In this document: one piece after another, positions 1,876 to 51,314 of the stretch | Layout: every line of letters begins with the position of its first letter | Position numbering within the stretch: position 1 is the stretch's first letter | Assembly: GCA_036267835.1 (NCBI GenBank) | Contig: DATAVF010000130.1 | Location: 554 to 64,553, forward strand | Direction: 5' to 3' | DNA from: Caulobacteraceae bacterium | GTDB taxonomy: Bacteria; Pseudomonadota; Alphaproteobacteria; Caulobacterales; Caulobacteraceae | Length of the DNA: 64,000 nucleotides | Position numbers and translations under genes: made by a program | Notes under the pieces: generated by a model | Databases searched by the model: none | What the model was told of the DNA's origin: nothing | What the model saw: the letters and a program-made list of their open reading frames with translations, nothing else

Positions 1876-4689
<2,814 letters not shown>

Positions 4690-4799: not shown

Positions 4800-5918
4800 T
4801 CACCCATCGGCCGAGGGGGCGGCGTCCGGCTCGAACCAGGTCGCGATGCGCTCGGCGTGGGGACGCCAGTCCAGGTCGCGCGTCGCCAGCCACGCGTCGT
4901 CGAAATAGGTGTCCTCGTAGCGCTGGCCGCTGTCGCACAGCAGGGTGACCACGGACCCGGCCTCGCCCCGCTCAGTCATCTCGGCGATGATCTCGACGCA
5001 GGCGACGATGTTGGTCCCGGTCGAGCCGCCGACCCGGCGCCCGAGCCGGCGGCTGATCGCCCGCATGGCGCCGAGGCTGGCGGCATCCGGCACGGCGATC
5101 ATCCGATCGATCACCTCGGGGATGAACGAGGGCTCCACCTGCGCGCGGCCGACGCCTTCGATGCAGGAGCCGCACCCATCCTCCAGCCGTTCGATGGAGC
5201 GGTCGAGGAAGTGCCGGTGGAACACCGAGCCGACCGGGTCGGCCACGCAGAGCCGTGTCGCCTTGCGGGCGTAGCGGATGTAGCGGCCCAGGGTGGCGGA
5301 GGTGCCGCCGGTGCCGGCGCCGCAGACGATCCAGGCGGGTTCCGGCGCTTCCTCGCGCGCCATCTGGGTGAAGATGCTCTCGGCGATATTGTTGTTGCCA
5401 CGCCAGTCGGTGGCGCGCTCGGCATAGGTGAACTGGTCGAGGAAGTGGCCGCCGCATTCCCGCGCCAGCCGCGCCGCCTCCGCGGGCGCGTCCCTCGGAT
5501 CGTCGACGAAGTGAATCTCCGCGCCCTCGAACCGGATCGCCTCGAGCTTGGCGCGCGACGTGGCGCGCGGGGCCACCGCCACGAAGCGCAGGCCGATCAG
5601 GCGGGCGAAGTAGGCCTCCGACACCGCGGTCGAGCCGCTGGTGGCGTCGAAGAGGGTGGTGGCCCGGCCGATCCGGCCGTTGCAGAGGCCGTAGAGGATC
5701 AGCGAGCGCGCCAGCCGATGCTTGAGGCTGCCGCTCGGGTGGGTGGATTCATCCTTCAGGTAGAGGCGCACGCCCGGGGCGCGCGGCAGATCGAGCCGGA
5801 TCAGGTGGGTGTCGGCCGAGCGGCAGACGTCAGCGTCCAGCCGCTGCAGCGCGCCGCCGATCCACTCGCGCGCTGAACCTTCGACTTTCCCGAATTCGGG
5901 CTTCTGCATGGTGGGCAT
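4800..5918 (-). CDS. PLP-dependent cysteine synthase / cystathionine beta-synthase fold (fold-type II) enzyme, divergent subfamily
   Basis: 372 aa. Candidate PLP-lysine block YLKDESTHPSGSLKHR. Glycine loop VCGAGTGGTSATLGRY. Last gene of the 13241->4800 operon, 5 nt after the preceding stop. Confidence 0.85.
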   Translation of the reverse strand: MPTMQKPEFGKVEGSAREWIGGALQRLDADVCRSADTHLIRLDLPRAPGVRLYLKDESTHPSGSLKHRLARSLILYGLCNGRIGRATTLFDATSGSTAVSEAYFARLIGLRFVAVAPRATSRAKLEAIRFEGAEIHFVDDPRDAPAEAARLARECGGHFLDQFTYAERATDWRGNNNIAESIFTQMAREEAPEPAWIVCGAGTGGTSATLGRYIRYARKATRLCVADPVGSVFHRHFLDRSIERLEDGCGSCIEGVGRAQVEPSFIPEVIDRMIAVPDAASLGAMRAISRRLGRRVGGSTGTNIVACVEIIAEMTERGEAGSVVTLLCDSGQRYEDTYFDDAWLATRDLDWRPHAERIATWFEPDAAPSADG

Positions 5919-5923
5919 TCCGT

Positions 5924-6841
5924 TCAGGAGCCGATGGCGCTTGCGGCGCGGAGGTCGTCCCCGGACAGCACCCTGTCCAGGAAGGCGGTGGCCTCGGCGC
6001 GCATGGCGGTGCGGGCGCCCGACATCTTCGCGTTCAGCCCGGCCTTGCGGGCCAGCAGCGGGTCACCGGAGGCGTTCACGCGGCGCTGCAGCTCGGCGGT
6101 GACGCGACTTGCGTGGGTCGCGGCAGCTTGCGGATCCGCGTCGTCCGGCGCCGGACCCAGGTCGCCGATGACGCGCTCGTTCTGGTCCTGGATGAATTGG
6201 TGAAGCCTGGCGGTCTCCGCCTCGCCCCACCCATCGGCCCGAAGGATCCGCTCGCACGCAACGCCTTCCCAGGCCGAGAGCAGGTCGACGGCCGCGCCGG
6301 GCGCCCTGCCATAGTCCCACGCGCAGGCTGCCACGGCGCCGGCCGCCACCGCCTCTTCCTCCCCGGCGCCGTCGAGACGGGCGAGCCGCGTCCGCGAAGC
6401 GCGCCAATCCTGGCGCGCCACGCAGGTCCCGGCGGCGGCGCGCCGATGCAGCGCGATAACGTCGCTCGCCGCCGCGCTCGGCTCGGCTGAGGGCATCAGC
6501 GCCTGAAGGCAATCAGGGGCCGCTTCCCAGACCCAGATGGTCAGGAGATGCGAGGCCGCGTCCAACGTGTCGCCGGGATTGACCGCCGACAGGACTTCCC
6601 GCGCCAGCATCGCGGGTGAACGACCGGCGCCAAACCTGCGGACCAGGTGCGACAGCATCAGGACGAGCGCCGGCGGGAGACCGACCTGGGCCGCCCAAAC
6701 GACCAGATCGGATTGGGTGGCGTGGGGCGCGACCAGCGGGACGGCCGCTGATGCTTCGAGCGCCGCCAGCAAATCGGCCTTGAGGGCAGGGTCGCCGCGG
6801 AAGGCGCCGGCTCCCATTGGGCCGTGGTCAAGGTCAGGCAT
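5924..6841 (-). CDS. Uncharacterised protein, paralog 1 of a tandem triplet
   Basis: 305 aa, no signal peptide or TM segment seen, Ala/Leu-rich. Shares collinear blocks with the two upstream genes (GDPALKADLLAAL, WAAQVGLPPALVL, ALHRRAAAG, AWDYGRAPGAAVDLLSAWE, GWGEAE..RL, LGPAP, GDP). Confidence 0.7.
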   Translation of the reverse strand: MPDLDHGPMGAGAFRGDPALKADLLAALEASAAVPLVAPHATQSDLVVWAAQVGLPPALVLMLSHLVRRFGAGRSPAMLAREVLSAVNPGDTLDAASHLLTIWVWEAAPDCLQALMPSAEPSAAASDVIALHRRAAAGTCVARQDWRASRTRLARLDGAGEEEAVAAGAVAACAWDYGRAPGAAVDLLSAWEGVACERILRADGWGEAETARLHQFIQDQNERVIGDLGPAPDDADPQAAATHASRVTAELQRRVNASGDPLLARKAGLNAKMSGARTAMRAEATAFLDRVLSGDDLRAASAIGS

Positions 6842-6860
6842 CTGGGTGCGGGTCCTGCGG

Positions 6861-7754
6861 CTAGGGTTGGGCCGGGATGGGCGGCCGGCTGGTTGGGCGC
6901 AGCAGCGCGATCATCGCCTGCAGGCCTTGCCGCCGCCGTGTGGCCGCGGCCCCGGCGAACTGGGCCTGCAACGCCTTGTGCCGATCCCACGTCGCATCGC
7001 CGAGAGCGGACATCAGCCGATCAAGCCCGGTTTGCAGGTGGTCGACGTAGAGCGCGAAGGCGGCGGCGTCGGACCTATCCGGGCGCTGTCCGATGCCTTG
7101 CTCGAGGCGCGGTTTCACCTCAGCAAGCATGGTCGCGAGGCGGACGTCGTCGCCCTCGCTCCAGCCTGCGGCGCGCCGGATCCCCGTCCTCGACAGCCCC
7201 TCCCAGGCCTGCAACAGGTCACTCACGGCCCCGGGCGCCAATTCGAAATCCCAGGCGCCGGCGGCGATGGTCGCCATGGCCCTTGCCTGGTCGTCCTCGC
7301 CCTCGGCGAGCCGGCCCAGGCCGAGGCGCGCATCGCGCCACGCGTCGCGGGCGACCTCGCCACCTGCCGCCGCCCGCCGGTGCAGGGCCATAGCCGTGCC
7401 GGCGGCCTCGATGCAGTCGGGTGACGACAGCAGGGCGCGGAGCGGCGTCGGCGAGGCTTCCGACGCCCACACGACCCAGGCGTTCGGAACCCGCCCGGTC
7501 GTCGCGCCAGGCTCGATGGCGGCCAGAAATGCGTGGGCGTCGCCGATGGAAGCAGGGTCCGCGGCGAACGACCTCGTTGCGCAGAGGTGGGCGCCGAGGA
7601 GGGCGAGCGCCGGCGGCAGGCCGACGCGGTCCGCCCACGCGATCAGCTCGACGACGCTAGCGCCGGCTGGATCGACCAGCGGGCTGGGCGGGCTGGCTTC
7701 CAGGGCGGCGAGCGCCAGCGCCTTCGTCCCCGGATCGCCATGGAATGCACTCAT
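6861..7754 (-). CDS. Uncharacterised protein, paralog 2 of a tandem triplet
   Basis: 297 aa. Same block order (GDPGTKALALAAL, WADRVGLPPALALL, ALHRRAAAG, AWDFELAPGAVSDLLQAWE, GWSEGDDVRL). Confidence 0.7.
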   Translation of the reverse strand: MSAFHGDPGTKALALAALEASPPSPLVDPAGASVVELIAWADRVGLPPALALLGAHLCATRSFAADPASIGDAHAFLAAIEPGATTGRVPNAWVVWASEASPTPLRALLSSPDCIEAAGTAMALHRRAAAGGEVARDAWRDARLGLGRLAEGEDDQARAMATIAAGAWDFELAPGAVSDLLQAWEGLSRTGIRRAAGWSEGDDVRLATMLAEVKPRLEQGIGQRPDRSDAAAFALYVDHLQTGLDRLMSALGDATWDRHKALQAQFAGAAATRRRQGLQAMIALLRPTSRPPIPAQP

Positions 7755-7771
7755 GATCTGTTCGGTCGCCG

Positions 7772-8632
7772 CTAGTGAGACGCCGGCGATCGAAGGATCG
7801 CGACCAGGGCGGCGCGGGCCTGGTCGCGGAGCTCCGCCGCAGCGCGGGCGGTCGCGGTCGACATCTGGGCGTGGCGGCCGCTGATCGGATCGCCGAGGCC
7901 GTCGATGAGCCTCTGCATCTCGGCAACCAGGCGCCTGGCGTGGGGCAGGTGGTCCGCCTTGTCGCTATCGGGGGCCGGGCCCAGGCGCTCCTCGGCGAGC
8001 TTCATTTGATCCTGGCGGATCTGCAGCAGGCGCTTGTCGTCCGCCTCGGTCCAACCCAGCCGGTCGCGGATTCGCGTTTCGCGGGCGTCGTCCCAGGCGC
8101 CAAGCAGATCGACCACCGCGCCGGGGGTGGCGCGATAGTCCCATGCCGCGGCGGCCACCGCCTGTGCGACCTTGTCGCCGTCGGTCGCGAGCCGCGCCAC
8201 CGCGGCGCGCGCGGCGCGCCAGCGACCACGTTCGATCTCGACGCCGGCGGCGGCGCTGCGGTGCAACTCGGCGATCTCGCTCGCGGCGTGCTGAAGATCC
8301 GGGGCGGTGAGCATCGCGCCAAGCGGTTCGGGCGCGCTCTCCAGGGCCCAGATCGTCCACAGGTGGGCGGCGGCCTCAGCCTGGGCGCCCGGCTCGATCG
8401 CCCCGATGACGTCGCGGGCGAACTGCAGCGCCGGCGGCGCGTGAAGGGGCTCGACGACCAGGTGCGCCGTGAGCAGAACCAGCGCCGCCGGTAGTCCGAC
8501 TTCGTCCGCCCAGGCGACAAGTTCAGCTTCCTGGCTCCAGGTTGAGAGGGTGATCAGAGGCAGCCGGGCAGGTTCGTTCAGGGCATCGATCAGGTCCGCC
8601 TTTAGCGCCGGATCGTTGCGGTAGGCGATCAC
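7772..8632 (-). CDS. Uncharacterised protein, paralog 3 of a tandem triplet (GTG start)
   Basis: The ORF track gives 7772..8872, but its first 80 codons overlap the thioredoxin gene in another frame. GTG at 8632-8630 overlaps the thioredoxin TGA (GTGA) and gives (M)IAYRNDPALKADLIDAL..., aligning with the N-termini of paralogs 1 and 2. Confidence 0.65.
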   Translation of the reverse strand: MIAYRNDPALKADLIDALNEPARLPLITLSTWSQEAELVAWADEVGLPAALVLLTAHLVVEPLHAPPALQFARDVIGAIEPGAQAEAAAHLWTIWALESAPEPLGAMLTAPDLQHAASEIAELHRSAAAGVEIERGRWRAARAAVARLATDGDKVAQAVAAAAWDYRATPGAVVDLLGAWDDARETRIRDRLGWTEADDKRLLQIRQDQMKLAEERLGPAPDSDKADHLPHARRLVAEMQRLIDGLGDPISGRHAQMSTATARAAAELRDQARAALVAILRSPASH

Positions 8633-8964
8633 GCCCGCGATCCCGCCACCTTCTCGATCATCGCGGCGATCGTCGAACGCGGCGCGGCGCCGGCGAGGCG
8701 CTGGCGCACCTCGCCGCCTTCGAACAACAGCAGCGCCGGGATGCCCATCACGCCGTATCGCTGCTGGGTGGCCGGGTTTTCGTCGACGTTGAGCTTCACG
8801 ACCACGACTTCGCCTTCGTACTCGGACGCGATGTCCTTCAGCGCCGGCTCCATCGCCCGGCACGGTCCGCACCAGTCGGCATAGAAGTCGACGAGAACCG
8901 GCGTGGTCGCGGCGAGGACTTCGGCCTCGAAGGTGGCTTCGGTGACGTAGGAAAGGTCAGCCAT
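8629..8964 (-). CDS. Thioredoxin
   Basis: The last 111 codons of ORF 8629..10374 give MADLSYVTEATFEAEVL...VLVDFYADWCGPCRAMEP...GIPALLLFEGGEV with a canonical WCGPC active site and thioredoxin length. The rest of that 581 aa ORF is a shadow of the ABC gene. Confidence 0.9.
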   Translation of the reverse strand: MADLSYVTEATFEAEVLAATTPVLVDFYADWCGPCRAMEPALKDIASEYEGEVVVVKLNVDENPATQQRYGVMGIPALLLFEGGEVRQRLAGAAPRSTIAAMIEKVAGSRA

Positions 8965-8978
8965 CTGGTGGCTCCTGT

Positions 8979-10763
8979 TCAGGGGTCGGATGATTGTGCT
9001 GGGATCAGGATCGACGCGGCGGCGCGCCCGTTCGCGATATCGATGGCGGTAGTGTGGAAGCGCGCCACGGTGGGGCGGTGGGCCACGGAGACGATCGCGG
9101 CGCCGGGCAGTTCCTCGGTCAGCGCCCGGTAGACGTCGGCCTCGAGTTCGACGTCGAGGGCGCTGGTGGCCTCGTCGAGAAACAGGAAGTCCGGGGCGCG
9201 CAACAGGGCCCGAACCGCCGCCATGCGCTGCTGCTCGCCGGGCGAGAGAATCTGCCGCCAATGAGCTTGCTCGTCGAGGCGGTCGACGAAATGATCGAGC
9301 GAAAGCCGGCGCAAGGCGTCGACATAGCGGCCACGATCCGCCGGCGTCGGCTCCCGCGGATAGCTGAGCAGCTCGGCCAGGGCGCCGCTCGGCATGTAGC
9401 TGCGTTGCGGCAGGAACAGGATCCGGTCTCGCGCCGGCGTCTCGATGGCGCCCGCCCCGTAGGGCCAGAGGCCGGCGATGGCCCGCAGCAGCGTGCTCTT
9501 GCCGGCGCCGGAGCGGCCGCGCACCAGCACCCGGTCGCCGGACGCCACATCCAGGCGATCGACCTCGAGCAGACGCTCGCCATCCGGCAGGTCGATGCGC
9601 AAGCCGCGCAAGGCGAGCTGCTTGCCGCCCTCGACGAGGGTGATGTCGCTGGTGATGGGGCGCTTGAGCTCGGTATCGAAGAAGCGGATCCGGGCCACGC
9701 CGGCGCGCAGGGCGGCGATGCTTGCATAAAGGCGCGCGAAGAAGCCGAACCCGCTCAGCACCATGTTGAAGGCGAGGGTCGCCGCCGCCATCTGGCCGAC
9801 GGTCATTTGCCCCGCCAGGATGTGCGGGATGCTGAGCAGCACCGGCACGAGCTTGGGAATGAGCATGTTCACCAGCTCGTTGAAGGCGTTCAACTTGACC
9901 TGCGCGATCGTGTATCGCCGCCAGTTGACGCCGATCAGGCCGAAGAGGCCCAGCGCGCGTTGCCGCTCGCGCTCGGCGCCGCGCTCGAAGGCGATGGCCT
10001 CGCTGTACTCGCGCACCTGTCCCAGGCCGTGGCGGAAGTCGGCTTCGAGCCGCTGGCGGCTGACCTCGATCTGGGTGATCGGGCGGCCGATGAAGTGGGC
10101 GCCGATCGTCCACAGGGTGGCGAACACCAGGGTGGCGACCAGCATGTCGGCCGGAACCGTGATCGGAATGCCGATCGGCGCCAGCGACAGCGGATGCGAC
10201 GCCTGCCAGATCAGCCCGAGGGAAAGCACCACCGTGGCGATGGAGCCGACCACGCTCGGCGCCAGCTCGATCACGCTCTCGGCGATGAAGAAGAAGTCTT
10301 CCTGGATACGCTGTTCCGGATTCTCGATCCGGCGATCTCGCTGGAGCGCCAGGAACCGGTTCTGGCTCAGCCACTGGGTGACGAACTCCAGCGTGTACTT
10401 CGCCCGCAGGCGCCAGCGCAGAAAGTAGGTCGCGGCCAGCAGCGTCTGGCCGACGACGAGCACGGCGCTCAGGATCACGAGCAGCGAGATGAGAATGCGC
10501 TGCACCTTGGCCGCGTTCAGGGCCACCAGCGCGTCGGTCATCGCGCCGGTCTGCACGTTCAGCTGGACGATCAGAACGGCCGCCAGCAGGCTCGCGAAGA
10601 AGAGGATCAGGGTCAGGGCGGTGGCGACCCAGGGATCGGACTTGAAGTAGCGGCCGAGCAACCCGCCGAGATAGGCGGCGTCGCGCCAGATCGGGTCGTT
10701 GCGCAGTTCAGGCGGCCGCTTGTTGGCGGCCGCCTCTGCCGGACCGATCGATTCCGAACTCAT
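8979..10763 (-). CDS. Fused permease-ATPase ABC transporter, YddA / SbmA-BacA / ABCD-like transmembrane domain
   Basis: 594 aa. TMD carries IENPEQRIQEDFFF (the NPDQRI-type motif of the ABC_membrane_2/SbmA-BacA group). NBD has Walker A GRSGAGKST, signature LSPGEQQR and Walker B FLFLDEATSALD. Confidence 0.9.
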   Translation of the reverse strand: MSSESIGPAEAAANKRPPELRNDPIWRDAAYLGGLLGRYFKSDPWVATALTLILFFASLLAAVLIVQLNVQTGAMTDALVALNAAKVQRILISLLVILSAVLVVGQTLLAATYFLRWRLRAKYTLEFVTQWLSQNRFLALQRDRRIENPEQRIQEDFFFIAESVIELAPSVVGSIATVVLSLGLIWQASHPLSLAPIGIPITVPADMLVATLVFATLWTIGAHFIGRPITQIEVSRQRLEADFRHGLGQVREYSEAIAFERGAERERQRALGLFGLIGVNWRRYTIAQVKLNAFNELVNMLIPKLVPVLLSIPHILAGQMTVGQMAAATLAFNMVLSGFGFFARLYASIAALRAGVARIRFFDTELKRPITSDITLVEGGKQLALRGLRIDLPDGERLLEVDRLDVASGDRVLVRGRSGAGKSTLLRAIAGLWPYGAGAIETPARDRILFLPQRSYMPSGALAELLSYPREPTPADRGRYVDALRRLSLDHFVDRLDEQAHWRQILSPGEQQRMAAVRALLRAPDFLFLDEATSALDVELEADVYRALTEELPGAAIVSVAHRPTVARFHTTAIDIANGRAAASILIPAQSSDP

Positions 10764-10778
10764 GTGGAGGCGGTATCC

Positions 10779-13241
10779 TTAGAACTTCGCGTCGACCACG
10801 AACCGGAATGTCCGGGGCTCCGCCCGCACCAATTGAAGGTCGCCGCCGGACAGTTCGTAATTCTGCCGCCCGAAAAGATTGTCGACGGTCAGATTGAACC
10901 GGAGGTTCCGCAAGGAATAACCGATGGATGCATCGAAGGTAACGTAGTCGTTGTTGAACTTGACGCTGTTATCGATGCCCGACGTATTGGTGAAGGTCGG
11001 CGTATCCGCCGCCAGCACGCCGGACTGAGCGATGTAGTAGCCGTCGTGGTAGTTGCCACCAAATCCGACGTCGATCTTGCTGCGGTCGCCCACATCGAAG
11101 GTCTTCACCACCCAGACGTTCGCCACGTTCTTCGGCGCTTCCTGGATCGGCTGCCCGTCCACGAAGGTTCCGGTGGTGTAGGTGTAGCCCGCGGTGATCT
11201 TGACGCTGCGCGAGAGCGCGCCCTCCGCCGACAGCTCGAGCCCCTGCGAACTCTCTCCGGGACCGGCGATGGAAAAGCCCGCATGGAGGGGGTTCGGATC
11301 GTTCAGCGCGCTGTTGCTGGTCGTATAGCTGAAGTACGACCCGTTCAGGTCGAGCCGATCGGAAAACAGGCTGGCTTTCAGGCCTGCTTCGTAACGCGAG
11401 ACAAGCGTCGGCGGTATGGACGCGCCGCTGAAGGTCATGGTCCCCGCGGGCTGCGGGCTGAAAGCCTGGTTGTAGCTGCCGTAGATCGAGAGCGCCTTGG
11501 TCACGTCGAACACCAGGCCGAGGTTCGGCGTCCACTTGCTGACGGCATTGGTGGTGGTCGAGCTGCCGAAGGGCGTCGAGCGATCATTGTACCAGGAGCC
11601 GCGTTCGCCGATCAGGGCGTGGACCCGGCCCCAGGTGATCTGATCCTGGAAGAAGAGGCCGTACTCCTCGGTTTGATCGTCGTCCTTGCTGCCCTGGTAG
11701 GGAACCGCCGGCAGCGGCGGGGGCGCGGCGCCGAACATCTCGAAGGCGGGCAAGACCGCGAGCGCGCGCCGGTCATCAACCAGGCTGTAGTCGCCGCCGA
11801 CGATGACTTGATGCTCCAGCGGCCCGGTGTCGAACTTGCTGTACAGGTCCACATGGTGGCTGCTGGTGGTCTGCGGCTCATAGATGCCGAGCGACACAAA
11901 GACCACGAACGGTCCCGCGAATTCAGCCGGAACCCCTACGGCGAGCGCCTCGCTGCCGGTCTGGTAGATGCCCTTGGCGCGCAGTTCCAGCGTCCAATCC
12001 GGGGACGAGACCAGGGTGTGCTCGAAGTTGTAGCCGAACTGCGAGAAGCTCGTCTGGATCAGATTGTTGGGATTGTAGAGCGTTCCGTATGACTGGATCG
12101 GCACGGTGACGGCGGCGACCGGCGTGCTCGGCAGCTGGACGTAGTCTTCGCGCGCGAACGGGGTCTGCTGCGAGAAGTATTCGAAATTCAGGTCGAGTTT
12201 GGTGTTGTCCGACCGATAGCCCAGCATCGGATTGATCACATACTGGGAGGGCCGGTTGCCGCCGGCCGGATTGTCGTCAGCGTGCTGGGCCAGCCCGATC
12301 ACACGGAAGTACAGCCCATCGACGCCGGGAATCGCGCCGCTGACGTCGCCCGAGAGCGTCCACTCATTGCCGCTGCCGTAGCCGGCCGAGACCTCGGTCG
12401 GGCTGATGCCGTTGGCGCGCTTGGGCACGTAGTTGAGCAGACCTCCGCCCACCTCGGTGCCGGTCAGCAGGGACGCCGGGCCCTTCAGCACTTCGACGCT
12501 GTCGAGCAGGACGGTGGGCTCGTTCTGGGCCAGGGAGCCGTTGCGCAGGCCATCCGTGAAGGTGATGCCGCCCTGGGCGCCGCCGGTGCTGGTCGGACCG
12601 AAGTTGACCTGGTAGCTGCCGCCGCTCTCTTCCAGCACCGCGCCGGGGATGTTCCGGATCGCCTCGCTCAGAGAATAGACGTTCTCGCTCTGGATGACGT
12701 CCTGAGGCACGACATCGACGGTGGCCGGCGTCTCGTGCAGCGGCGTATTCGTCATCGTCGCCGCGGACGAGAAGTTCTCCTTGAAGGCCTGCCGGCGCGC
12801 GGTGACGACGATCGCGCCGACGTCGGTGGCCCCGGCTTCGCGCGCCAGCCGGATTTCGCCGTTGGTCAGACTGACCACCTGCCAGCCCGTGCCCTTCAGC
12901 GCCAGCACCACGGCCTCGTGCAGACTCATCCGTCCCGACACGCCCGGCGACTGGACATCCAGTAGCCCACTGTTGTCGGTCCGGTACTTCGCGCCGGACT
13001 GCGCCGTGATCGCGTCCAGCACGGTCGCCAGCGAGCCGGGCGCCACCTTGAAGTCGAAGTTGGCGATGGACTGGCCCCGCAGATCCTCGGAGGCCGCCTG
13101 CGTGGCTTGCGCCTGCGAGTTTGGCGAGGTGGCGCTGGGGGTTGTGACGCCTTGCGCCAGCGCGTCGGTCGCGTGGAATGCCAGGATCGACTGGCAGATC
13201 AGCGTGGCCGCGATAGAAATATAGATTCTCTTGGAAAGCAT
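10779..13241 (-). CDS. TonB-dependent receptor with N-terminal STN (signalling) domain (TonB-dependent transducer type)
   Basis: True start is the ATG at 13241 (MLSKRIYISIAATLICQSILAFHATDALA signal peptide). STN-like block FDFKVAPGSLATVLDAITAQSGAKY...SLHEAVVLALKGTGW. Plug VEVLKGPASLLTG. Barrel ends ...FRFVVDAKF. The 1112 aa ORF-track extension upstream is rejected. Confidence 0.9.
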   Translation of the reverse strand: MLSKRIYISIAATLICQSILAFHATDALAQGVTTPSATSPNSQAQATQAASEDLRGQSIANFDFKVAPGSLATVLDAITAQSGAKYRTDNSGLLDVQSPGVSGRMSLHEAVVLALKGTGWQVVSLTNGEIRLAREAGATDVGAIVVTARRQAFKENFSSAATMTNTPLHETPATVDVVPQDVIQSENVYSLSEAIRNIPGAVLEESGGSYQVNFGPTSTGGAQGGITFTDGLRNGSLAQNEPTVLLDSVEVLKGPASLLTGTEVGGGLLNYVPKRANGISPTEVSAGYGSGNEWTLSGDVSGAIPGVDGLYFRVIGLAQHADDNPAGGNRPSQYVINPMLGYRSDNTKLDLNFEYFSQQTPFAREDYVQLPSTPVAAVTVPIQSYGTLYNPNNLIQTSFSQFGYNFEHTLVSSPDWTLELRAKGIYQTGSEALAVGVPAEFAGPFVVFVSLGIYEPQTTSSHHVDLYSKFDTGPLEHQVIVGGDYSLVDDRRALAVLPAFEMFGAAPPPLPAVPYQGSKDDDQTEEYGLFFQDQITWGRVHALIGERGSWYNDRSTPFGSSTTTNAVSKWTPNLGLVFDVTKALSIYGSYNQAFSPQPAGTMTFSGASIPPTLVSRYEAGLKASLFSDRLDLNGSYFSYTTSNSALNDPNPLHAGFSIAGPGESSQGLELSAEGALSRSVKITAGYTYTTGTFVDGQPIQEAPKNVANVWVVKTFDVGDRSKIDVGFGGNYHDGYYIAQSGVLAADTPTFTNTSGIDNSVKFNNDYVTFDASIGYSLRNLRFNLTVDNLFGRQNYELSGGDLQLVRAEPRTFRFVVDAKF

Positions 13242-13460
13242 TGTCGCCCCGGCGTTTCGTGCAAGATCAACACTTCCCGACAGGACTGTCGGTTTCGCTG
13301 ATCTGCGATCCCCTCCAATCAACGGCGCGTGACTGAACACGCGCGCGCTGGCTAGCTCGGCGGCTACTTTTTGTGTCTGTTGTAGTCCCCAGCATGAACG
13401 TATAACCGCCAAGAGCGTCCGTCTTGCGTATGCCGGGACGATTGATTGTCTGAGAGTGTA

Positions 13461-14417
13461 ATGAGCAGGGCGACGGCTGTCCGGGAATGGGCGAGCGGAT
13501 TGGAGCCGATCTTCGGAGCGCATCGCATCGAGGACGACGCCCCGGACTCGCAGGTTCGCGAGATCACCACCGGCCAGCGCGGCCTGGTGAAGTTCTGGCG
13601 GGTCCGCCATGGGGCGCAGAAGGTGTTTGTCCGGGGAACCGCGCGCGGCCCGGACGAGATGCGCGTTCTGGTCAGGCGGTTCGGCGCCGAGAAGGTCCTC
13701 GACCTCGTGCGCAGTGGCTGCCTGCTGTTGCTCGCGGTGGAGGAAGGCTCCGCCAAGCTGGATCTCTACAACGGGCCGGTGGTGCTTGGGCCCGGAGATG
13801 CGCTGGTCGTGACCGCGATGGAGCCGTTCGTGTTCTCGACTCCCGGCGCTTTCGCGGCGGTCTGGGTCGAACTGCCGGTCTGGTGGGTCATCGAGCTCTG
13901 CCGCGGCAAGATGCACGGCGCGCGGCGACGCCTGGACGGCTCGCGCGGCACCACGACCGTGTTGCGGAGCGCGCTTCACACCCTGCTGGAGGATGGCCGG
14001 GACGCCGAGGAGACAGACCAGCTCGTGGACCTGTTCGGCGACATCCTGGCGCGCTGCCTGATCATCGAGGTCGCCGAAGAGGCCGACCTGCCGGGGCCGA
14101 TCGACCGGATCAATCACTTCATCTCAGTCAATTTCCGCACGCCAGGCCTGGCGCCGCCGGACGCCGCGCGCGCCCTCGGATGCTCTCTGAGCAGCCTTCA
14201 CAAGAGCTGCGCCGCCGTCGGTGCGACCTTCGGCGCCATGCTGGCGAACATGCGGCTATCGGTAGCCGCCTATAAGCTGAGCCGAACGTCCGAGAGCATC
14301 TCGGCCATCGCTTACGATTGCGGATTCTCGTCGCTTCCGCACTTCTGCCACGCCTTCAAGGCGCGCTACGGCGTGACGGCCGGCAGCCTGCGGCGACAGC
14401 ATGCGGCAAGAGCCTGA
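13461..14417 (+). CDS. AraC family transcriptional regulator
   Basis: C-terminal double HTH (ISAIAYDCGFSSLPHFCHAFKARYGVTAGSLRR). ATG at 13461 preceded by GAGAG. The ORF-track start at 13446 is a TTG. Divergent from the TonB-receptor operon. Confidence 0.85.
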   Translation: MSRATAVREWASGLEPIFGAHRIEDDAPDSQVREITTGQRGLVKFWRVRHGAQKVFVRGTARGPDEMRVLVRRFGAEKVLDLVRSGCLLLLAVEEGSAKLDLYNGPVVLGPGDALVVTAMEPFVFSTPGAFAAVWVELPVWWVIELCRGKMHGARRRLDGSRGTTTVLRSALHTLLEDGRDAEETDQLVDLFGDILARCLIIEVAEEADLPGPIDRINHFISVNFRTPGLAPPDAARALGCSLSSLHKSCAAVGATFGAMLANMRLSVAAYKLSRTSESISAIAYDCGFSSLPHFCHAFKARYGVTAGSLRRQHAARA

Positions 14418-14443
14418 AGCGAGGTCGGAGCGTCAGCAGAGAA

Positions 14444-15520
14444 CTAGGCGCGGCCGCTGGCGATCGTCACCTTGATGTCTTGGCCGCCGCCAAGCGCTTC
14501 GAAAGCGGCGGCGACGCCGGCGCGGCCGACGGTCCGGGATGTCATCGCCGCTGCGTCGATCCGGCCCTCGGCGATGTCCGCCAGCACCTGGGCGAACTCG
14601 GGGGCGGTGTAGGCGGCGACGAAGCGCAGGGTGAGTTGCTTGTTGATCGCGACCATCGGCTCGAAGTGGTCCTGCTCCATGCAGACGCCGACCACGATCA
14701 CTTGGGCGCCCGGAGCGACGCCCTCGATGATGCCCTGGATGACGCCGGGCGCGCCGACGCACTCGAACACGATCGGGCGGCGTACGCGGCGGCCGGCAAG
14801 CTGGGCGGCTTCGCGCTCGAGCATCGGCACGATCACGCCTTGCGCCGGCCATTGCAGGTGCGGCGACTGGACGGCGGGGTCGATCACCAGATCCGCGCCC
14901 AGGCGCTCGGCGGCGGCGCGGCGCAGCGCCGAGTAGTCCGCCGCCACGATCGGGCCGAAGCCTCTCGCCTTCAGGGCCGCGATCACCGCCAGCCCGACCG
15001 GCCCGCAGCCGATCACCATGGCGACGCTGTCCTGGTCGAGGTCGGCCTGCGCCACCGCGTGGGCGCCGACCGCGAACGGCTCGACCGCCGCGGCGTGGGC
15101 GTCGGGGATGTGGTCGGGCACCGCCATCAGCATCGAGGCGTCGACGCAAACCAGTTCGCCGTAGCCGCCGGGGAACCGGTGAGAGAGGCCCACCGTCTCG
15201 CGGCCGTTGGGACCGGTCGCGTAGGGCAGGGCGATGACCCGGGCGCCCGGCTCGAAGCGCCGCTCGGCGCCCGGGCCATAATCCAGCACCTGGCCGCAGA
15301 ATTCGTGGCCGAAGACGATGTCGCGCGCCGGGTCGATGCCGACGCGGCGGCCGGCCTTGACGGCGGCGTCGGCGACGCGCTGGGCGAAGCGATGGACATG
15401 CAGGTCGGAGCCGCAGATGCCGCAGGCCAGGGTCTTCAGCCGCACCTGGCCGTGTCCCGGGATCGGATCCTCGACCTCGGCGCAGATCAGGGCGCCGGCG
15501 CGGCGAACGACTGCTTGCAT
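14444..15520 (-). CDS. Zinc-dependent alcohol dehydrogenase (MDR family)
   Basis: 358 aa. LACGICGSDLHV zinc/catalytic motif and GCGPVGL Rossmann motif. 1-nt start/stop overlap with the upstream gene. Confidence 0.9.
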   Translation of the reverse strand: MQAVVRRAGALICAEVEDPIPGHGQVRLKTLACGICGSDLHVHRFAQRVADAAVKAGRRVGIDPARDIVFGHEFCGQVLDYGPGAERRFEPGARVIALPYATGPNGRETVGLSHRFPGGYGELVCVDASMLMAVPDHIPDAHAAAVEPFAVGAHAVAQADLDQDSVAMVIGCGPVGLAVIAALKARGFGPIVAADYSALRRAAAERLGADLVIDPAVQSPHLQWPAQGVIVPMLEREAAQLAGRRVRRPIVFECVGAPGVIQGIIEGVAPGAQVIVVGVCMEQDHFEPMVAINKQLTLRFVAAYTAPEFAQVLADIAEGRIDAAAMTSRTVGRAGVAAAFEALGGGQDIKVTIASGRA

Positions 15521-16596
15521 CAGGCGTCTCCCTTCAGGATGCGCTGCACGATCGCGGCGCCGAGGTCGTGGGTGCTGGCGCGCCCGCCCATGTCGGGCGT
15601 CAGCGGCGCGCCCGGGGCGGTCAGGGTTGCCTCGATGGCGGCGACGATGGCTGCGCCGGCTTCCGGCTCGCCCAGATGGTCGAGCATCATGGCGGCGGAC
15701 CAGATCTGGCCGACCGGGTTGGCGACGCCCTGGCCAGCGATGTCGGGCGCCGAGCCGTGCACGGGCTCGAACATCGACGGGTGCGTGCGCTCGGGGTTGA
15801 TGTTGCCGGACGGCGCGACGGCGATGGTGCCGGTCACGCCCGAGCCGAGGTCGGAGAGGATGTCGCCGAAGAGGTTGCTCGCGACCACCACGTCAAAGCG
15901 CTGCGGGTGCAGGGCAAAGCGCGCCGCCAGGATGTCGATGTGGTGCTGCTCTGTGGCGATGTCCGGGTAGCGCGCAGCCACGTCGGCGAAGCGCTCGTCC
16001 CAGTAGGGCATCGAATAGTAGATGCCGTTGGACTTGGTGGCCGAGGCCACGCGGGACTTGCCGAGCCGGCGGGCCAGCTCGAAGGCGTAGGTCATGATCC
16101 GCTCGCAGCCGTGCCGGGTGAAGATGGCGGTCTGCAGCACCATCTCGTTCGGCGCGCCCTCGAACTGGCGTCCGCCAACCTGCGAATATTCGCCCTCGCT
16201 GTTCTCGCGCACGATCCAGAAGTCGATGTCGCCGGGTTCAACGTCGCGAAGCGGCGAGCGCACGCCGCGCAGCAGCCGCACCGGGCGCAGGTTGACGTAC
16301 TGATCGAAGCTGCGCCGGATCGGGATCAATAGGCCCCAGAGCGAGACGTGATCCGGTACGCCGGGGAAGCCGACGGCGCCCAGGAAGATGGCGTCATGGT
16401 CGGCAAGGCGGGCGATGCCGTCGGCCGGCATCATCGCGCCGGTGGCCTTGTAGGTCTCGCAGCTCCAGTCGAAATGGCGGTAGGTCAGGACGAAGCCGAA
16501 CCGGGCCGCCGCGGCCTCCAGCGCCGCCAGGCCCTCGGCCATCACTTCGACCCCGATCCCGTCGCCGGGAATGACGGCGATCTCGTAGCGCTTCAT
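15520..16596 (-). CDS. Tartrate dehydrogenase/decarboxylase-like (isocitrate/isopropylmalate dehydrogenase family)
   Basis: 358 aa. MKRYEIAVIPGDGIGVEV N-terminus and overall beta-decarboxylating dehydrogenase pattern. ATGA overlap with the upstream aldolase gene. Confidence 0.85.
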   Translation of the reverse strand: MKRYEIAVIPGDGIGVEVMAEGLAALEAAAARFGFVLTYRHFDWSCETYKATGAMMPADGIARLADHDAIFLGAVGFPGVPDHVSLWGLLIPIRRSFDQYVNLRPVRLLRGVRSPLRDVEPGDIDFWIVRENSEGEYSQVGGRQFEGAPNEMVLQTAIFTRHGCERIMTYAFELARRLGKSRVASATKSNGIYYSMPYWDERFADVAARYPDIATEQHHIDILAARFALHPQRFDVVVASNLFGDILSDLGSGVTGTIAVAPSGNINPERTHPSMFEPVHGSAPDIAGQGVANPVGQIWSAAMMLDHLGEPEAGAAIVAAIEATLTAPGAPLTPDMGGRASTHDLGAAIVQRILKGDA

Positions 16597-17336
16597 TGCC
16601 GGTAGTCCGCGCCCATGCGGTCGAGCTTTCGCAGCAGGGCCGGCCAGAGATACTTGTCGGCGACCGGTTGCGGGTCGGCCGAGCCCTGTTCCGCGGTCAC
16701 CTGGCGCACGGCCTGGTTGGGCCGGGTCAGCGGGCGGTCGCCGGCCAGGGCCGCGACCTGCATCTGGCAGGCGCGCTCCAGCCGGTACATGCGCTGGAAG
16801 GTGGTGGCGATGCTCGGGCCGCAGGTCAGCGTGCCGTGGTTGCGCAGCAGCATGAAGCTCCGCGCGCCAAGGTCGGCCACCAGCCTCGGCCGCTCGTCGT
16901 GGTCGAAGGCCACCCCTTCGTAGGCGTGATAGGCCAGCTGGTCGCAGATCAGCATGGCCTCCTGGTGCAGCGGCAAGAGGCCCTCTTGCTGGCAGGAGAC
17001 GCCGGTGCCAGCCACGGTGTGCAGGTGCATGACGCAGTGCGCGTCCTGGCGCGCCGCATGGACGGCGGAATGGATGGTGAAGCCGGCGGTGTTGATCAGG
17101 TAGGGCGAGGGCGCGACGATCTCGCCGTCGAGATCGACCTTGACCAGCGACGAGGCGGTCACCTCCTCGAACAGCAGGCCGAACGGGTTGAGCAGGAAAT
17201 GGCGTTCGGGGCCGGGAATGCGCACCGACAGGTGGGTGTAGAGCAGGTCGTCCCAGCCCATCAGCGCCACCATGCGGTAGCAGGCCGCGAGGTCCACGCG
17301 CAGCGCCGCCTCCACCTCGCCCATTTCCGCCGCCAT
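16593..17336 (-). CDS. Class II aldolase/adducin family protein
   Basis: The last 247 codons of ORF 16593..18443. Start ATG at 17336 is preceded by GGGAGG. Contains FTIHSAVHAAR..CVMHLHT (metal-binding His cluster typical of the family). Confidence 0.85.
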   Translation of the reverse strand: MAAEMGEVEAALRVDLAACYRMVALMGWDDLLYTHLSVRIPGPERHFLLNPFGLLFEEVTASSLVKVDLDGEIVAPSPYLINTAGFTIHSAVHAARQDAHCVMHLHTVAGTGVSCQQEGLLPLHQEAMLICDQLAYHAYEGVAFDHDERPRLVADLGARSFMLLRNHGTLTCGPSIATTFQRMYRLERACQMQVAALAGDRPLTRPNQAVRQVTAEQGSADPQPVADKYLWPALLRKLDRMGADYRQ

Positions 17337-17390
17337 CCTTGCGCCTCCCGCACCGTTCGCCCGCCGGAGCATTCGCCTCAGCCGCGCCGG

Positions 17391-17420
17391 ATTGTAAATA
17401 GTGTAATAAATGGTATCAAC
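17391..17420. promoter_or_regulatory. AT-rich box in the aldolase/TauD divergent intergenic region, contains ATAGTGTAATAAAT
   Basis: ATTGTAAATAGTGTAATAAATGGTATCAAC stands out in GC-rich DNA. Shares TTA-N-ACTAT (reverse strand) with boxes at 20076 and 20182. Confidence 0.3.
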
Positions 17421-17453
17421 CCGCCAGCGAGCGTTTGAGACAGGAGACTTAAG

Positions 17454-18497
17454 ATGGACGGCGACGCGCGGGCGACACTGAAGGCCCCGGACCTGCCGCC
17501 CGGGGTGACCCACCACTTCAACCCACCGCACGGCCTGCCGCTGATTCTGGAGCCGGTGGCGGGCTCGTCGCTGCGCTCGGATCCGGCCGCGGTGCAGGCC
17601 TGGTATGCCGAGCATCACGGATCGCTGGAGACGCTGCTGCAGGGCGCCGGGGCCGTGATGCTGCGCGGCTTCGCCATCCCGGACACGGCGGCCTTCAACG
17701 CCATGATCGAAGGCTACGATACCGACCCGCACGGCTACGCCGGCGGCCTGACGCCGCGCAAGAACATCGCCGGCAAGGTGTTCGAGGCTTCGCGGGTGCC
17801 GCCCGACCAGAAGATCATCCTGCACCAGGAGATGGGCTACCTGCCCAACTATCCGCGCATGGTGGCCTTCTACTGCCTGACCCCGCCGGGTGCGGGCGGC
17901 TGCACCACCATCGGCGACATGCGCCGCTTCCAGCGCGAGATCCCGGATGCGCTGATGGCCGAGGTGCGCGAGCGCGGCGTGCTCTACCGGCGCAACTACC
18001 GGGCGCCTGGTCCGGAGGCGAGCCCGATCAAGGCGCTGTTCCGCCGCGAATGGACCGACGTGCTGCAGGTCGAGACCGCCGCCGAAGCCGAGGCGGCGTG
18101 TGCGGCCGTGGGCTGCGAAGCGGTCTGGGAAGACGATGGCTCGCTCTCGATGCGCTACCGCTCCAGCGGCTTCGTGCAGCATCCGGTGTCCGGCGACGAC
18201 GTCTGGTTCGCCCAGGTGCAGGGCATGCACTTCAACGCCGCGCGGCTGGAGCACAACTATCAGGTCCTGGCCGACGCCTTCCCGGCGGACCGGCCGCGGC
18301 CCATCGAGATCCTGTTCGGCGACGGCGGCCAGATTCCCGAGGAGCTGGTGACGCCGCTCTATCCGATCCTCGACGCCCTGGCGGTGAACCTGCCCTACCA
18401 GCACGCCGACTTCATGCTGCTCGACAACATCTACACAGCCCACGGCCGCGAGCCCTACACCGGCTTCCGGGACGTGCAGGTCGGCCTGGTGTTCTGA
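17454..18497 (+). CDS. TauD/TfdA family Fe(II)/2-oxoglutarate dioxygenase
   Basis: 347 aa. AGGAGA RBS. Clavaminate-synthase-like pattern (ILHQEMGY..., DNIYTAHGREPY) typical of TauD-family proteins. Confidence 0.8.
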   Translation: MDGDARATLKAPDLPPGVTHHFNPPHGLPLILEPVAGSSLRSDPAAVQAWYAEHHGSLETLLQGAGAVMLRGFAIPDTAAFNAMIEGYDTDPHGYAGGLTPRKNIAGKVFEASRVPPDQKIILHQEMGYLPNYPRMVAFYCLTPPGAGGCTTIGDMRRFQREIPDALMAEVRERGVLYRRNYRAPGPEASPIKALFRREWTDVLQVETAAEAEAACAAVGCEAVWEDDGSLSMRYRSSGFVQHPVSGDDVWFAQVQGMHFNAARLEHNYQVLADAFPADRPRPIEILFGDGGQIPEELVTPLYPILDALAVNLPYQHADFMLLDNIYTAHGREPYTGFRDVQVGLVF

Positions 18498-18515
18498 GGC
18501 GGTGACCGCAGAGTT

Positions 18516-18563
18516 CCTTCTCCCGCTCCGGGAGGAGGTGGCGCCGTAGGCGTCGGATGAGGG
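18516..18563. repeat. REP-like GC-rich palindromic element, copy 1
   Basis: CCTTCTCCCGCTCCGGGAGGAGGTGGCGCCGTAGGCGTCGGATGAGGG. Internally self-complementary. Inverted relative to copy 2. Confidence 0.55.
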
Positions 18564-18629
18564 TCATCCTCCGCACAACGACGTTTCGGCGCGAGCGCAC
18601 CACCTCGAAGAGCCGGTCCGCGGATAGGT

Positions 18630-18674
18630 CCCCTCATCCGGCGCTTCGCGCCACCTTCTCCCGGGGGGAGAAGG
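18630..18674. repeat. REP-like GC-rich palindromic element, copy 2 (inverted)
   Basis: CCCCTCATCCGGCGCTTCGCGCCACCTTCTCCCGGGGGGAGAAGG. Its reverse complement aligns with copy 1 (CCTTCTCCC...GGTGGCGC...CGGATGAGGG). Confidence 0.55.
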
Positions 18675-18680
18675 GGCGCC

Positions 18681-20033: not shown

Positions 20034-20075
20034 TCCCTCGCCCCATCGTTGGCGACGCAACTGGCCGCGTGGGAG

Positions 20076-20094
20076 AAATATTATACTATTTAAT
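20076..20094. promoter_or_regulatory. AT-rich box AAATATTATACTATTTAAT in the MFS/ACAD divergent region
   Basis: Contains TTATACTAT. Same orientation as the 20182 box. Confidence 0.3.
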
Positions 20095-20181
20095 CGGCGG
20101 CAAACGCTGAAGCGGCGGGCCGAGCGCGCGCCCGCGCCACTTTTCCGCGTGACATCGCCGAAGGGCTAAGCGATATAGGGT

Positions 20182-20195
20182 AATAATTAGACTAT
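20182..20195. promoter_or_regulatory. AT-rich box AATAATTAGACTAT immediately upstream of the first ACAD gene
   Basis: Contains TTAGACTAT and lies 12 nt before the GTG start at 20207. Could be a -10-like element (near-leaderless mRNA) or an operator. Confidence 0.3.
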
Positions 20196-20206
20196 GGGGT
20201 GAAGCG

Positions 20207-39337: not shown

Positions 39338-39370
39338 GAATTTCCCCCAAGTCGCGCTGGCGGCCGCCAG

Positions 39371-39407
39371 TTGCACAAATGTATAACTCTATTTTACAAT
39401 CGTGCAA
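39371..39407. promoter_or_regulatory. 37-bp imperfect palindrome, candidate TetR operator (Op1) between the TonB-receptor operon and tetR
   Basis: TTGCACAAATGTATAAC-TCT-ATTTTACAATCGTGCAA. The half-site GTTATACAwwyGTGCAA is shared with Op2. Confidence 0.6.
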
Positions 39408-50992: not shown

Positions 50993-51314
50993 CATCGACC
51001 GGCTTCTGCATCAGCGGTCGCCGGCTGAACGCCTCGGGCAGTTCGACATTGGAGTAGCCACTCAGGAAGATGAAGGGCGTCGCGGCTTCCACCAGCTTCT
51101 CGGCGACCGCGAAGCTCCGCTCGCCGTGAACGTTGATGTCCAGCAGGGCCGCATCGACGTGCGAGGCCGCCAGCAGCGCCAGGGCGGCGCGAACCCGGCC
51201 CACCGGGCCCAGCACGTCATAGCCCGCAGCGCTCATCGCCTGCTCGATCTGGTCGGCGATCAGCCACTCGTCCTCGACAATCAGGACCAGGGGGCGCCGG
51301 GCCGTTTCCATCAC
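50949..51314 (-). CDS. Single-domain response regulator (receiver)
   Basis: 121 aa. LVLIVEDEWLIA...AALLDINV...FIFLSGY. 4-nt overlap with the upstream kinase stop. Confidence 0.85.
   Translation of the reverse strand: MMETARRPLVLIVEDEWLIADQIEQAMSAAGYDVLGPVGRVRAALALLAASHVDAALLDINVHGERSFAVAEKLVEAATPFIFLSGYSNVELPEAFSRRPLMQKPVDVTRLCLCLQSLLSV

Follow-up and report, generated by a model that had tools for sequence, protein, structure and literature searches.

Transporters of the SbmA/BacA family carry hydrophilic peptides (Bac7, NCR peptides and microcins), bleomycin and cobalamin (PMC8442886, PMC10960864, PMC12003926), and microcin J25 takes a route formed by the receptor FhuA and the transporter SbmA. 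Here, we describe a predicted seven-gene uptake operon in a 64,000-nt stretch of contig DATAVF010000130.1 (hereafter the window), from the metagenome-assembled genome (MAG) of a Caulobacteraceae bacterium (GCA_036267835.1). The operon resembles the FhuA-SbmA route and the BacA, BclA and Rv1819c systems in combining an FhuA-like TonB-dependent receptor with an ATP-binding cassette (ABC) importer of the SbmA/BacA family and no periplasmic binding protein. Unlike FhuA and SbmA of E. coli, which are unlinked and hijacked by toxins, its receptor and importer are co-encoded with a thioredoxin, three unclassified paralogs labelled HF (HF_A, HF_B and HF_C) and a pyridoxal 5'-phosphate (PLP)-dependent enzyme; their combination in one regulated operon would imply that import is the intended function.

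The Fus and related protease-associated import systems (PAIS) likewise join TonB-dependent polypeptide import to dedicated peptidases and an inner-membrane transporter (PMC6793856), and one relative of the window locus (L012) has a TonB-ExbBD system and an M16 peptidase of its own. The present system departs from them in its receptor, which is not of the FusA family, in its peptidases, which are cytoplasmic (S9, TldD/PmbA, M3 and PreP-like M16) and lacking in the window, and in its thioredoxin, HF and PLP enzyme, which PAIS do not have.

AraC-regulated siderophore uptake loci, such as PchR-FptA-FptX, YbtA-Psn-YbtPQ and RhrA-RhtA-RhtX, share with this locus a divergent AraC gene, a TonB receptor near the siderophore receptors and a single permease or fused ABC transporter. 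In contrast to these loci, the window has no biosynthetic genes, Fur box or ferric reductase and encodes a thioredoxin, HF and a Cds1-like enzyme, with oligopeptidases in its relatives. A resemblance to AraC-controlled metallophore loci had been put forward in the original prediction for this DNA; the receptor type and the divergent AraC gene fit it, and the ABC protein is of the BacA type rather than the YbtPQ/IrtAB type.

Two further systems resemble single parts of the locus. The L-cysteine desulfhydrase Cds1 of Mycobacterium tuberculosis (Rv3684), which converts cysteine to H2S, pyruvate and ammonia (PMC8389258), represents by far the top-scoring curated family for the PLP enzyme, although Cds1 is not known as a member of an uptake operon. 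The TBDR-pTFP module of Stenotrophomonas maltophilia pairs a TonB receptor with a thioredoxin-fold protein; the partner is described as extracytoplasmic and associated with Mn/Fe limitation (PMC13217887), whereas the window thioredoxin is a cytoplasmic WCGPC protein that always occurs with HF. In the literature searched, this Mn-related extracytoplasmic module was the only pairing of a TonB receptor with a thioredoxin fold. Literature on BacA-like transporters, TonB receptors, thioredoxin and peptidases yielded no description of the module presented here, and no neighbourhood of this kind is mentioned in a paper on how BacA-like transporters are distributed. The locus is thus known in kind, as a TonB-dependent uptake locus with cytoplasmic processing, and has a new protein family with a dedicated thioredoxin at its centre. 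We consider it very probable that its genes form one functional system, and we give an about even chance to the reading that this system takes up an exogenous disulfide-containing peptide in a TonB-dependent manner, reduces it and breaks it down.

Conservation and layout of the locus

Besides a duplicate contig of the window itself, 13 independent loci were read; the contig of P0007 proved too short to use. Where the flanks could be read, HF adjoined the thioredoxin gene in all 13 loci, typically with a 4-nt overlap (the window, L003, L004, L006, L007, L008, L010, L012, L014, L016, L017, L018 and the P0018 locus). All 11 loci whose flanks were long enough carried both a TonB receptor and an inner-membrane importer, which was a BacA-like ABC protein in ten and a major facilitator superfamily (MFS) permease in L010 (Table 1). 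Carriers included Caulobacter radicis, Sphingomonas mali, Sphingomonas fuzhouensis and several metagenomic contigs. Identity to the window proteins fell to 24% for the receptor and 30% for the ABC protein and lay between 41 and 85% for the thioredoxin, while the PLP enzyme, where present, was 53–68% identical (68% for the S. fuzhouensis gene in L004 and 53% for that in L006). The Cds1-like PLP gene was linked in seven loci, its position changing. The linkage of paralogs, thioredoxin, importer and TonB receptor, whose conservation the original prediction had proposed to check, therefore held across divergent lineages, and the invariant core, as it appears from these loci, is the thioredoxin-HF pair rather than the full seven-gene set.

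This conservation bears on whether the genes are merely adjacent and have no common function, with the thioredoxin and HF serving a general redox or other role. HF is uncharacterised, the accessory genes vary among loci and the operon is predicted from sequence, all of which would fit such a view. However, the same receptor-importer-thioredoxin-HF order recurs in 11 loci whose receptors are 24–70% identical and which come from at least two families of Alphaproteobacteria, the thioredoxin and HF genes share a 4-nt start/stop overlap, and the PLP gene stays linked despite its changes of position. Mere adjacency is effectively refuted by this synteny, and we regard it as extremely improbable.

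Table 1. Gene content and order of related loci
Locus	Source	Genes
L006	Peat metagenome	PALP; AraC divergent; receptor, ABC, thioredoxin, HF x2, S9 peptidase
L003		Order as L006, with frameshifts; S9 at end
P0018 locus		AraC; receptor, ABC, thioredoxin, HF, S9, PALP
L008/L009		AraC; receptor, ABC, thioredoxin, HF x2
L010		Extracytoplasmic function (ECF) sigma factor, FecR, STN receptor, MFS, thioredoxin, HF, then start of PLP gene
L012/L013		STN receptor, TonB, ExbB, ExbD, M16, ABC, ECF sigma factor, FecR, thioredoxin, HF
L014		Sigma factor, STN receptor, ABC, thioredoxin, HF, M16
L016	Caulobacter radicis	Two-component system, receptor, ABC, thioredoxin, HF, AraC
L017	Sphingomonas mali	PmbA, TldD, thioredoxin-reductase-like, thioredoxin, HF, AraC, ECF sigma factor, HF-like, ABC, STN receptor, thioredoxin, HF-like, thioredoxin
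L004	Sphingomonas fuzhouensis	LysR, receptor, ABC, PmbA, TldD, thioredoxin, HF, thioredoxin-reductase-like, M3 oligopeptidase, PALP
L018		HF, thioredoxin; Pyr_redox_2 fragment, PALP and Tricorn/S9-like gene within 10 kb

The S. mali locus L017 (BCYX01000003, 5737-20919) is an expanded version with three thioredoxins (WCGPC, WCAPC and WCGPC), three HF-family proteins and an STN receptor of 1023 amino acids (aa). Its two further HF-like proteins were recognised at an hhalign probability of 97–98% and belong to a divergent subfamily that has another sequence in place of the 'WD' motif. A metagenomic protein of 402 aa (P0132) joins a thioredoxin domain (CPLC, residues 9-101) to an HF domain (154-319), apparently in frame. 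The fusion looks genuine and may be Rosetta-stone evidence for a thioredoxin-HF complex, the alternative being an assembly indel at the usual 4-nt overlap. A second candidate fusion, P0082, was rejected as a frameshift artefact. Transposase/integrase genes (DDE_5, rve) lie directly downstream of the module in L008 (12340-13017) and L003 (13090-13719), a hint that the module moves horizontally. Straight after the thioredoxin-HF pair, L012 carries a purine/urate catabolism cluster (10898-20870) with genes for a xanthine/uracil permease, an OHCU decarboxylase, a transthyretin-like HIU hydrolase and a urate oxidase N-terminal domain, which is probably unrelated. A 637-aa open reading frame (ORF) after the L004 PLP gene looks like a wrong-frame ORF in high-GC DNA and was set aside.

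The seven window genes occupy the minus strand from 13241 to 4800, with ORFs as originally placed, and the AraC gene is divergent from them (Table 2). Recalculation from the coordinates reproduced the seven-gene run, the divergent regulator and the junctions of 15, 14, -4, 17, 19 and 5 nt, and this short spacing suggests that the genes are co-transcribed. The thioredoxin/HF_A overlap reads gcgGGCGTGAtc; its GTGA contains both the thioredoxin stop and the GTG from which HF_A starts. Terminator-like sites showed no excess within the run (4 seen against 4.1 expected from shuffled sequence). The NCBI annotation of the same MAG, which names a PLP-dependent cysteine synthase family protein, a thioredoxin, an SbmA/BacA-like family transporter and a TonB-dependent receptor, places the start of the receptor 33 codons upstream and that of the PLP enzyme 3 codons downstream, leaving the picture unchanged. 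For the regulator, the ATG start at 13461 is more likely than the TTG at 13446.

Table 2. Features of the window locus
Feature	Position	Strand	Length	Remarks
AraC-family regulator	13446 (TTG) or 13461 (ATG)..14417	+		HTH_18, HTH_AraC, AraC_binding_2
Divergent intergenic control region	13242..13445			AraC gene to receptor gene
TonB-dependent receptor	10779..13241	-	820 aa	Signal peptide, STN-like N-terminal extension, plug, barrel
Fused permease-ATPase importer	8979..10763	-	594 aa	BacA/Rv1819c (SbmA-like) type
Dedicated thioredoxin	8629..8964	-	111 aa	WCGPC, no signal peptide
HF_A, first paralog	7772..8632	-		GTG start; 4-nt overlap with thioredoxin stop
HF_B, second paralog	6861..7754	-	297 aa	
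HF_C, third paralog	5924..6841	-	305 aa	
Cds1-like fold-type II PLP enzyme	4800..5918	-	372 aa	

A catalase-peroxidase gene, katG (ORF 1918-4689, plus strand), faces the operon tail to tail, its stop 110 nt from that of the PLP gene; as listed, the katG ORF has a long arginine-rich N-terminal extension that is probably untranslated. Elsewhere in the window (51311-54415, minus strand), a single 1034-aa ORF joins CheB methylesterase, CheR methyltransferase, PAS and HWE histidine-kinase domains.

The HF family

The three HF proteins, originally taken for mutual paralogs, proved to be true homologues with 42–43% identity (BLASTP, E = 6e-52 and 8e-45), and HF belongs to no described family. Pfam gave no consistent match across 70 HF members, NCBIfam, PHROGs and PADLOC gave no match, and a profile search of the PDB sequences returned nothing significant (best E = 0.02). 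AlphaFold modelled HF_C as an all-helical protein of 14 helices (predicted local distance difference test (pLDDT) 93.8, predicted template modelling (pTM) score 0.89), and residues 1-205 modelled separately reached a pLDDT of 93.9. Foldseek searches of the PDB found no relative of full-length HF_C (best E = 0.22, TM 0.15) or of the N-terminal domain (best E = 3.5), TM being no higher than 0.26 in either search. The sole sub-threshold structural match in BFVD was to an uncharacterised phage protein (E = 9e-4, TM 0.36–0.43). The profile searches suggested with the original prediction thus led to no characterised family in any of these databases and the structure searches, with two confident models, to no PDB fold; a characterised family with a function unrelated to the neighbours and no conserved synteny, which would have spoken against the prediction, did not turn up.

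An exhaustive profile search recovered HF in 205 of 1.84 billion cluster representatives at E <= 1e-3, so that the family comprises ~205 clusters, counted at 50% identity. Nearly all members are ~290 aa long, and the family is acidic (median isoelectric point 5.2). The named members, from S. mali, C. radicis and an uncultured Caulobacter, are all annotated as 'hypothetical protein'. Conserved positions, in HF_C numbering, are W146, R147, R150, W175, D176, P181, D186, W191 and W205. The family has no conserved cysteine, and HF_A has none whatsoever; HF is thus no thiol-redox protein itself, and a role as a thiol enzyme recycled by thioredoxin was rejected. A role as a polymorphic-toxin immunity protein was also rejected, its sole support being an Imm-5-like BFVD match at E = 2.2, with none from PADLOC or PHROGs.

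HF_B matched best the first HF of L006 and L001 (45–48% identity) and HF_C the second (45–46%), and these separate counterparts indicate that the HF_B/HF_C duplication is old. HF_A had no close orthologue in L006 and is probably an extra copy, the most recent one. A giant protein of 4799 aa (P0126) has 17 stretches that match the long-helix region at the C-terminal end of the HF profile; these matches are most likely a coiled-coil or low-complexity artefact and not homology.

Receptor, importer and regulation

The receptor showed matches to Plug (PF07715, 47 bits) and the TonB barrel (PF00593, 146 bits) and by these domains has the plug and 22-strand barrel of a TonB-dependent siderophore receptor. 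Against the siderophore-receptor model TIGR01783 it scored 199 bits, under the cutoff of 223.5, and on this score it is siderophore-receptor-like but not a certified member. Its closest solved relatives were FhuA (2e-33), the pseudopaline receptor CntO (9e-31) and FoxA (4e-30), whereas FusA and YddB gave no match to it among the PDB sequences at E <= 1e-5. The CntO and FoxA alignments begin at about residue 64 of the window receptor, with the N-terminal signalling domains, which suggests that a signalling domain is included. Of the STN TonB receptor originally claimed, the plug and barrel are supported; the N-terminus aligns to FoxA and CntO from residue ~64 on but scored 16.9 bits for STN (PF07660), below the Pfam cutoff of 28.4, and is called STN-like here. 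Three more TonB-dependent receptor genes lie in the window, at 29838-32057 (minus strand), 37134-39407 (minus strand) and 60358-62589 (plus strand), and the genome is rich in such receptors, as is typical for Caulobacterales and Sphingomonadales.

The ABC protein combines ABC_membrane_2 (PF06472, 109 bits), SbmA_BacA (PF05992, 64.7 bits, cutoff 24) and ABC_tran (63.5 bits) in one chain. Its best PDB match was Rv1819c/BacA of M. tuberculosis (6tqe, E = 2e-74, residues 92-580), which imports Bac7, bleomycin and cobalamin (PMC10960864). These domains and this match bear out the SbmA/BacA-like fused ABC protein originally proposed, and by them the protein is classified as an ATPase-fused BacA-like transporter of the BclA and Rv1819c group.

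The regulator scored 66 bits for HTH_18, 37 bits for HTH_AraC and 30.7 bits for AraC_binding_2, which marks it by domain content as a standard AraC protein with a C-terminal double helix-turn-helix and an N-terminal AraC_binding_2 ligand domain. Its best NCBIfam matches were FeaR and RhrA, both far under cutoff, and orthologues with 46–58% identity hold the same divergent position in L003, L006 and L008. A ~45-nt block in the AraC/receptor intergenic region (~13419-13462) is conserved with L003 (~4000-4060) and L006 (~4190-4240). It reads ATTACACTCTCAGACAATCAATCG...GCAAGACGG on the minus strand, lies on the AraC-proximal side of the divergent region in these three AraC-type loci, and is a candidate operator or promoter. 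The sole sigma-70-like match of the control region overlaps the receptor start. Among the relatives, L010 and L012 have both a sigma factor and FecR and L014 and L017 a sigma factor; tblastn of the 64-kb window with the L012 sigma factor and FecR as queries found no homologue of either. Fur regulation was rejected, since the control region has no Fur-box-like site and the single match in 64 kb, at 31550, carries 3 mismatches. A cobalamin route was rejected as well: an Rfam scan of the whole window gave no riboswitch or other element, and the receptor is not BtuB-like.

Receptor and regulation together raise the alternative that the receptor and ABC protein take up a sulfur-containing or peptidic metallophore of the siderophore or chalkophore type. 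The thioredoxin and HF would then free the metal by reduction or open a disulfide or thiol ligand, and the peptidases and PLP enzyme would recycle the backbone. The receptor, closest to FhuA, CntO and FoxA and nearly at the TIGR01783 cutoff, fits this explanation, as do a divergent, weakly RhrA-like AraC protein, a classic regulator of siderophore loci, and the ECF sigma/FecR/STN cell-surface signalling in L010, L012, L014 and L017. The replacement of the ABC protein by an MFS permease in L010 would also suit it, and siderophores are carried by the exporter-fold ABC importers YbtPQ and IrtAB. However, the window importer belongs to the other, BacA/Rv1819c type, the control region is devoid of a Fur-box-like site, and the 64 kb lack biosynthetic genes as well as a ferric reductase of the flavin or FhuF type. 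Thioredoxin is not known to act as a ferric-siderophore reductase, and the presence of four oligopeptidase families and a desulfhydrase-like enzyme is difficult to account for with any ligand other than a cysteine-containing peptide; for such a peptide the explanation merges with peptide import. We regard metallophore uptake as unlikely, though it is the strongest of the competing explanations.

Cytoplasmic processing and proposed function

The thioredoxin passed the TIGR01068 cutoff (109.7 bits, cutoff 96.8) and has the WCGPC active site predicted for it, and, as it has no signal peptide, we assign it to the classical cytoplasmic thioredoxins. The PLP enzyme scored 170 bits for PALP and 520.6 bits for NF052478 (L-cysteine desulfhydrase Cds1), below the equivalog cutoff of 600; the next NCBIfam family reached 149 bits, leaving Cds1 ahead by >370 bits. 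The enzyme is probably a desulfhydrase (C-S lyase) for cysteine or S-substituted cysteine, and its score under the cutoff suggests that the substrate may differ (cystine, lanthionine or an S-substituted cysteine).

Peptidase genes accompany the module in several relatives. S9 acylaminoacyl/oligopeptidase genes occur in L001, L003, L006 and the P0018 locus, with aminoacyl and acylaminoacyl peptidases and prolyl oligopeptidases as nearest solved relatives; a lasso-peptide isopeptidase was rejected, none being among the top 60 matches. TldD/PmbA are encoded in L004 and L017, an M3 oligopeptidase in L004, and PreP-like M16 peptidases in L012 and L014, that of L012 matching human PreP at 3e-111 and being neither FusC-like nor PqqL-like. 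These accessory oligopeptidases act solely on unstructured peptides. No signal peptide was found on the thioredoxin, HF and PLP proteins or on those S9 and M16 N-termini that were read, which places processing in the cytoplasm, and the loci encode no periplasmic binding protein and no periplasmic protease. Thioredoxin-reductase-like genes are present in L004, L017 and L018.

The occurrence of cytoplasmic oligopeptidases among the accessory genes argues for a peptide cargo rather than a generic organosulfur compound. Of the sulfur-containing or disulfide cargo first envisaged, the peptide is thus favoured by the relatives and the generic organosulfur nutrient less so. The proposed sequence of import followed by reductive and C-S chemistry has gained strength from the thioredoxin-reductase-like genes and the persistent linkage of the Cds1-like gene. 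We infer a hydrophilic, cysteine-rich, peptide-like cargo and a regulated uptake. In L001, a LysR gene and a sulfate-assimilation cluster (siroheme synthase, sulfite reductase and PAPS reductase; 5035-11153) lie ~1.4-2.6 kb downstream of HF-S9, which fits a sulfur-related role but was seen in this one locus only.

The peptidases also bring up Fus-like protease-associated import, in which a whole small protein (a ferredoxin or another Fe-S or metal protein) would be imported and cleaved and the cytoplasmic genes would handle cysteine-ligated cluster fragments. The genes of L012/L013 indeed match the Fus set and its order (STN receptor, TonB, ExbB, ExbD, M16, ABC), and Fus/PAIS loci are variable and recruit other proteases (PMC6793856). 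Against it, FhuA, FoxA and CntO, and not FusA or YddB, are the receptor's solved relatives, and the PreP-like L012 M16 has no signal peptide, so that cleavage would be cytoplasmic, unlike that of Fus. Thioredoxin is absent from the text and supplements of the PAIS paper (PMC6793856). Membership of the window in Fus/PAIS was rejected, as it has no FusA/YddB-family receptor, no M16 peptidase (FusC/PqqL), no FusB-type TonB and no ExbBD. We consider a Fus-like function improbable, well behind metallophore uptake.

For the import and dismantling of a disulfide-containing peptide, the following course can be proposed. On sensing the cargo or one of its derivatives, the AraC regulator would activate the seven genes, the FhuA/FoxA-like receptor would move the cargo over the outer membrane, and the BacA/Rv1819c-like ABC protein (MFS in L010) would pass it on to the cytoplasm with no need for a periplasmic binding protein. 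The dedicated thioredoxin, which a reductase of its own would recharge in the Sphingomonas loci, would reduce the cargo disulfide or disulfides, and HF, translationally coupled to the thioredoxin, would most likely bind, present or open the cargo. Oligopeptidases, locus-encoded in relatives and housekeeping enzymes in the window genome, would degrade the unfolded peptide, and the Cds1-like enzyme would dispose of the freed cysteine or S-substituted cysteine as pyruvate, ammonia and sulfide. The purpose may be sulfur, nitrogen or carbon nutrition or the neutralisation of a peptide antibiotic.

Several points weigh against this proposal. The nearest relatives of the receptor are siderophore/metallophore receptors, the AraC, ECF sigma-FecR and STN regulation found across the loci is typical of siderophore systems, and the MFS permease in L010 suggests a small cargo. 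Since HF shows neither a recognisable motif for catalysis or binding nor any structural relative, its role is a guess. The window itself has no peptidase, tblastn of the 64 kb giving no S9, TldD, PmbA, M3 or M16 homologue, and it has no homologue of thioredoxin reductase, TonB (L012 query) or ExbBD. Neither a cargo nor a precursor peptide nor a biosynthetic gene was found; a locus-encoded precursor was rejected because the small ORFs inspected in L008, L016 and L017 are not cysteine-rich, one being a FecR-like N-terminal fragment. The proposal as a whole rests on sequence and predicted structure.

A more far-reaching proposal can be made only tentatively, and we hold it with less confidence than peptide import as such. 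The thioredoxin-HF pair would be a previously unrecognised cytoplasmic machine, with HF as the founding member of a new fold and a thioredoxin-coupled cargo-opening enzyme or holdase, and would define a new TonB-dependent 'reductive peptide import' class in Caulobacterales, Sphingomonadales and related soil or peat Alphaproteobacteria. Free-living bacteria would thereby deliberately take up protease-resistant peptides stabilised by disulfides (defensin-like, cyclotide-like, NCR-like or like ribosomally synthesised and post-translationally modified peptides) and break them down for sulfur and nitrogen or for self-protection. HF, with its ~205 clusters, no Pfam entry, no PDB fold and a clear genomic partner, is directly testable, and cultured carriers of the module exist in C. 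radicis, S. mali and S. fuzhouensis.

If peptide import is correct, bacteria would possess regulated pathways dedicated to peptides in which a TonB receptor works with a BacA-like importer, a route so far mostly studied as a door hijacked by antimicrobial peptides and microcins. It would give the poorly understood ATPase-fused BacA-like transporters a natural role outside symbiosis and pathogenesis and would add a thioredoxin-dependent step to nutrient or antibiotic processing.

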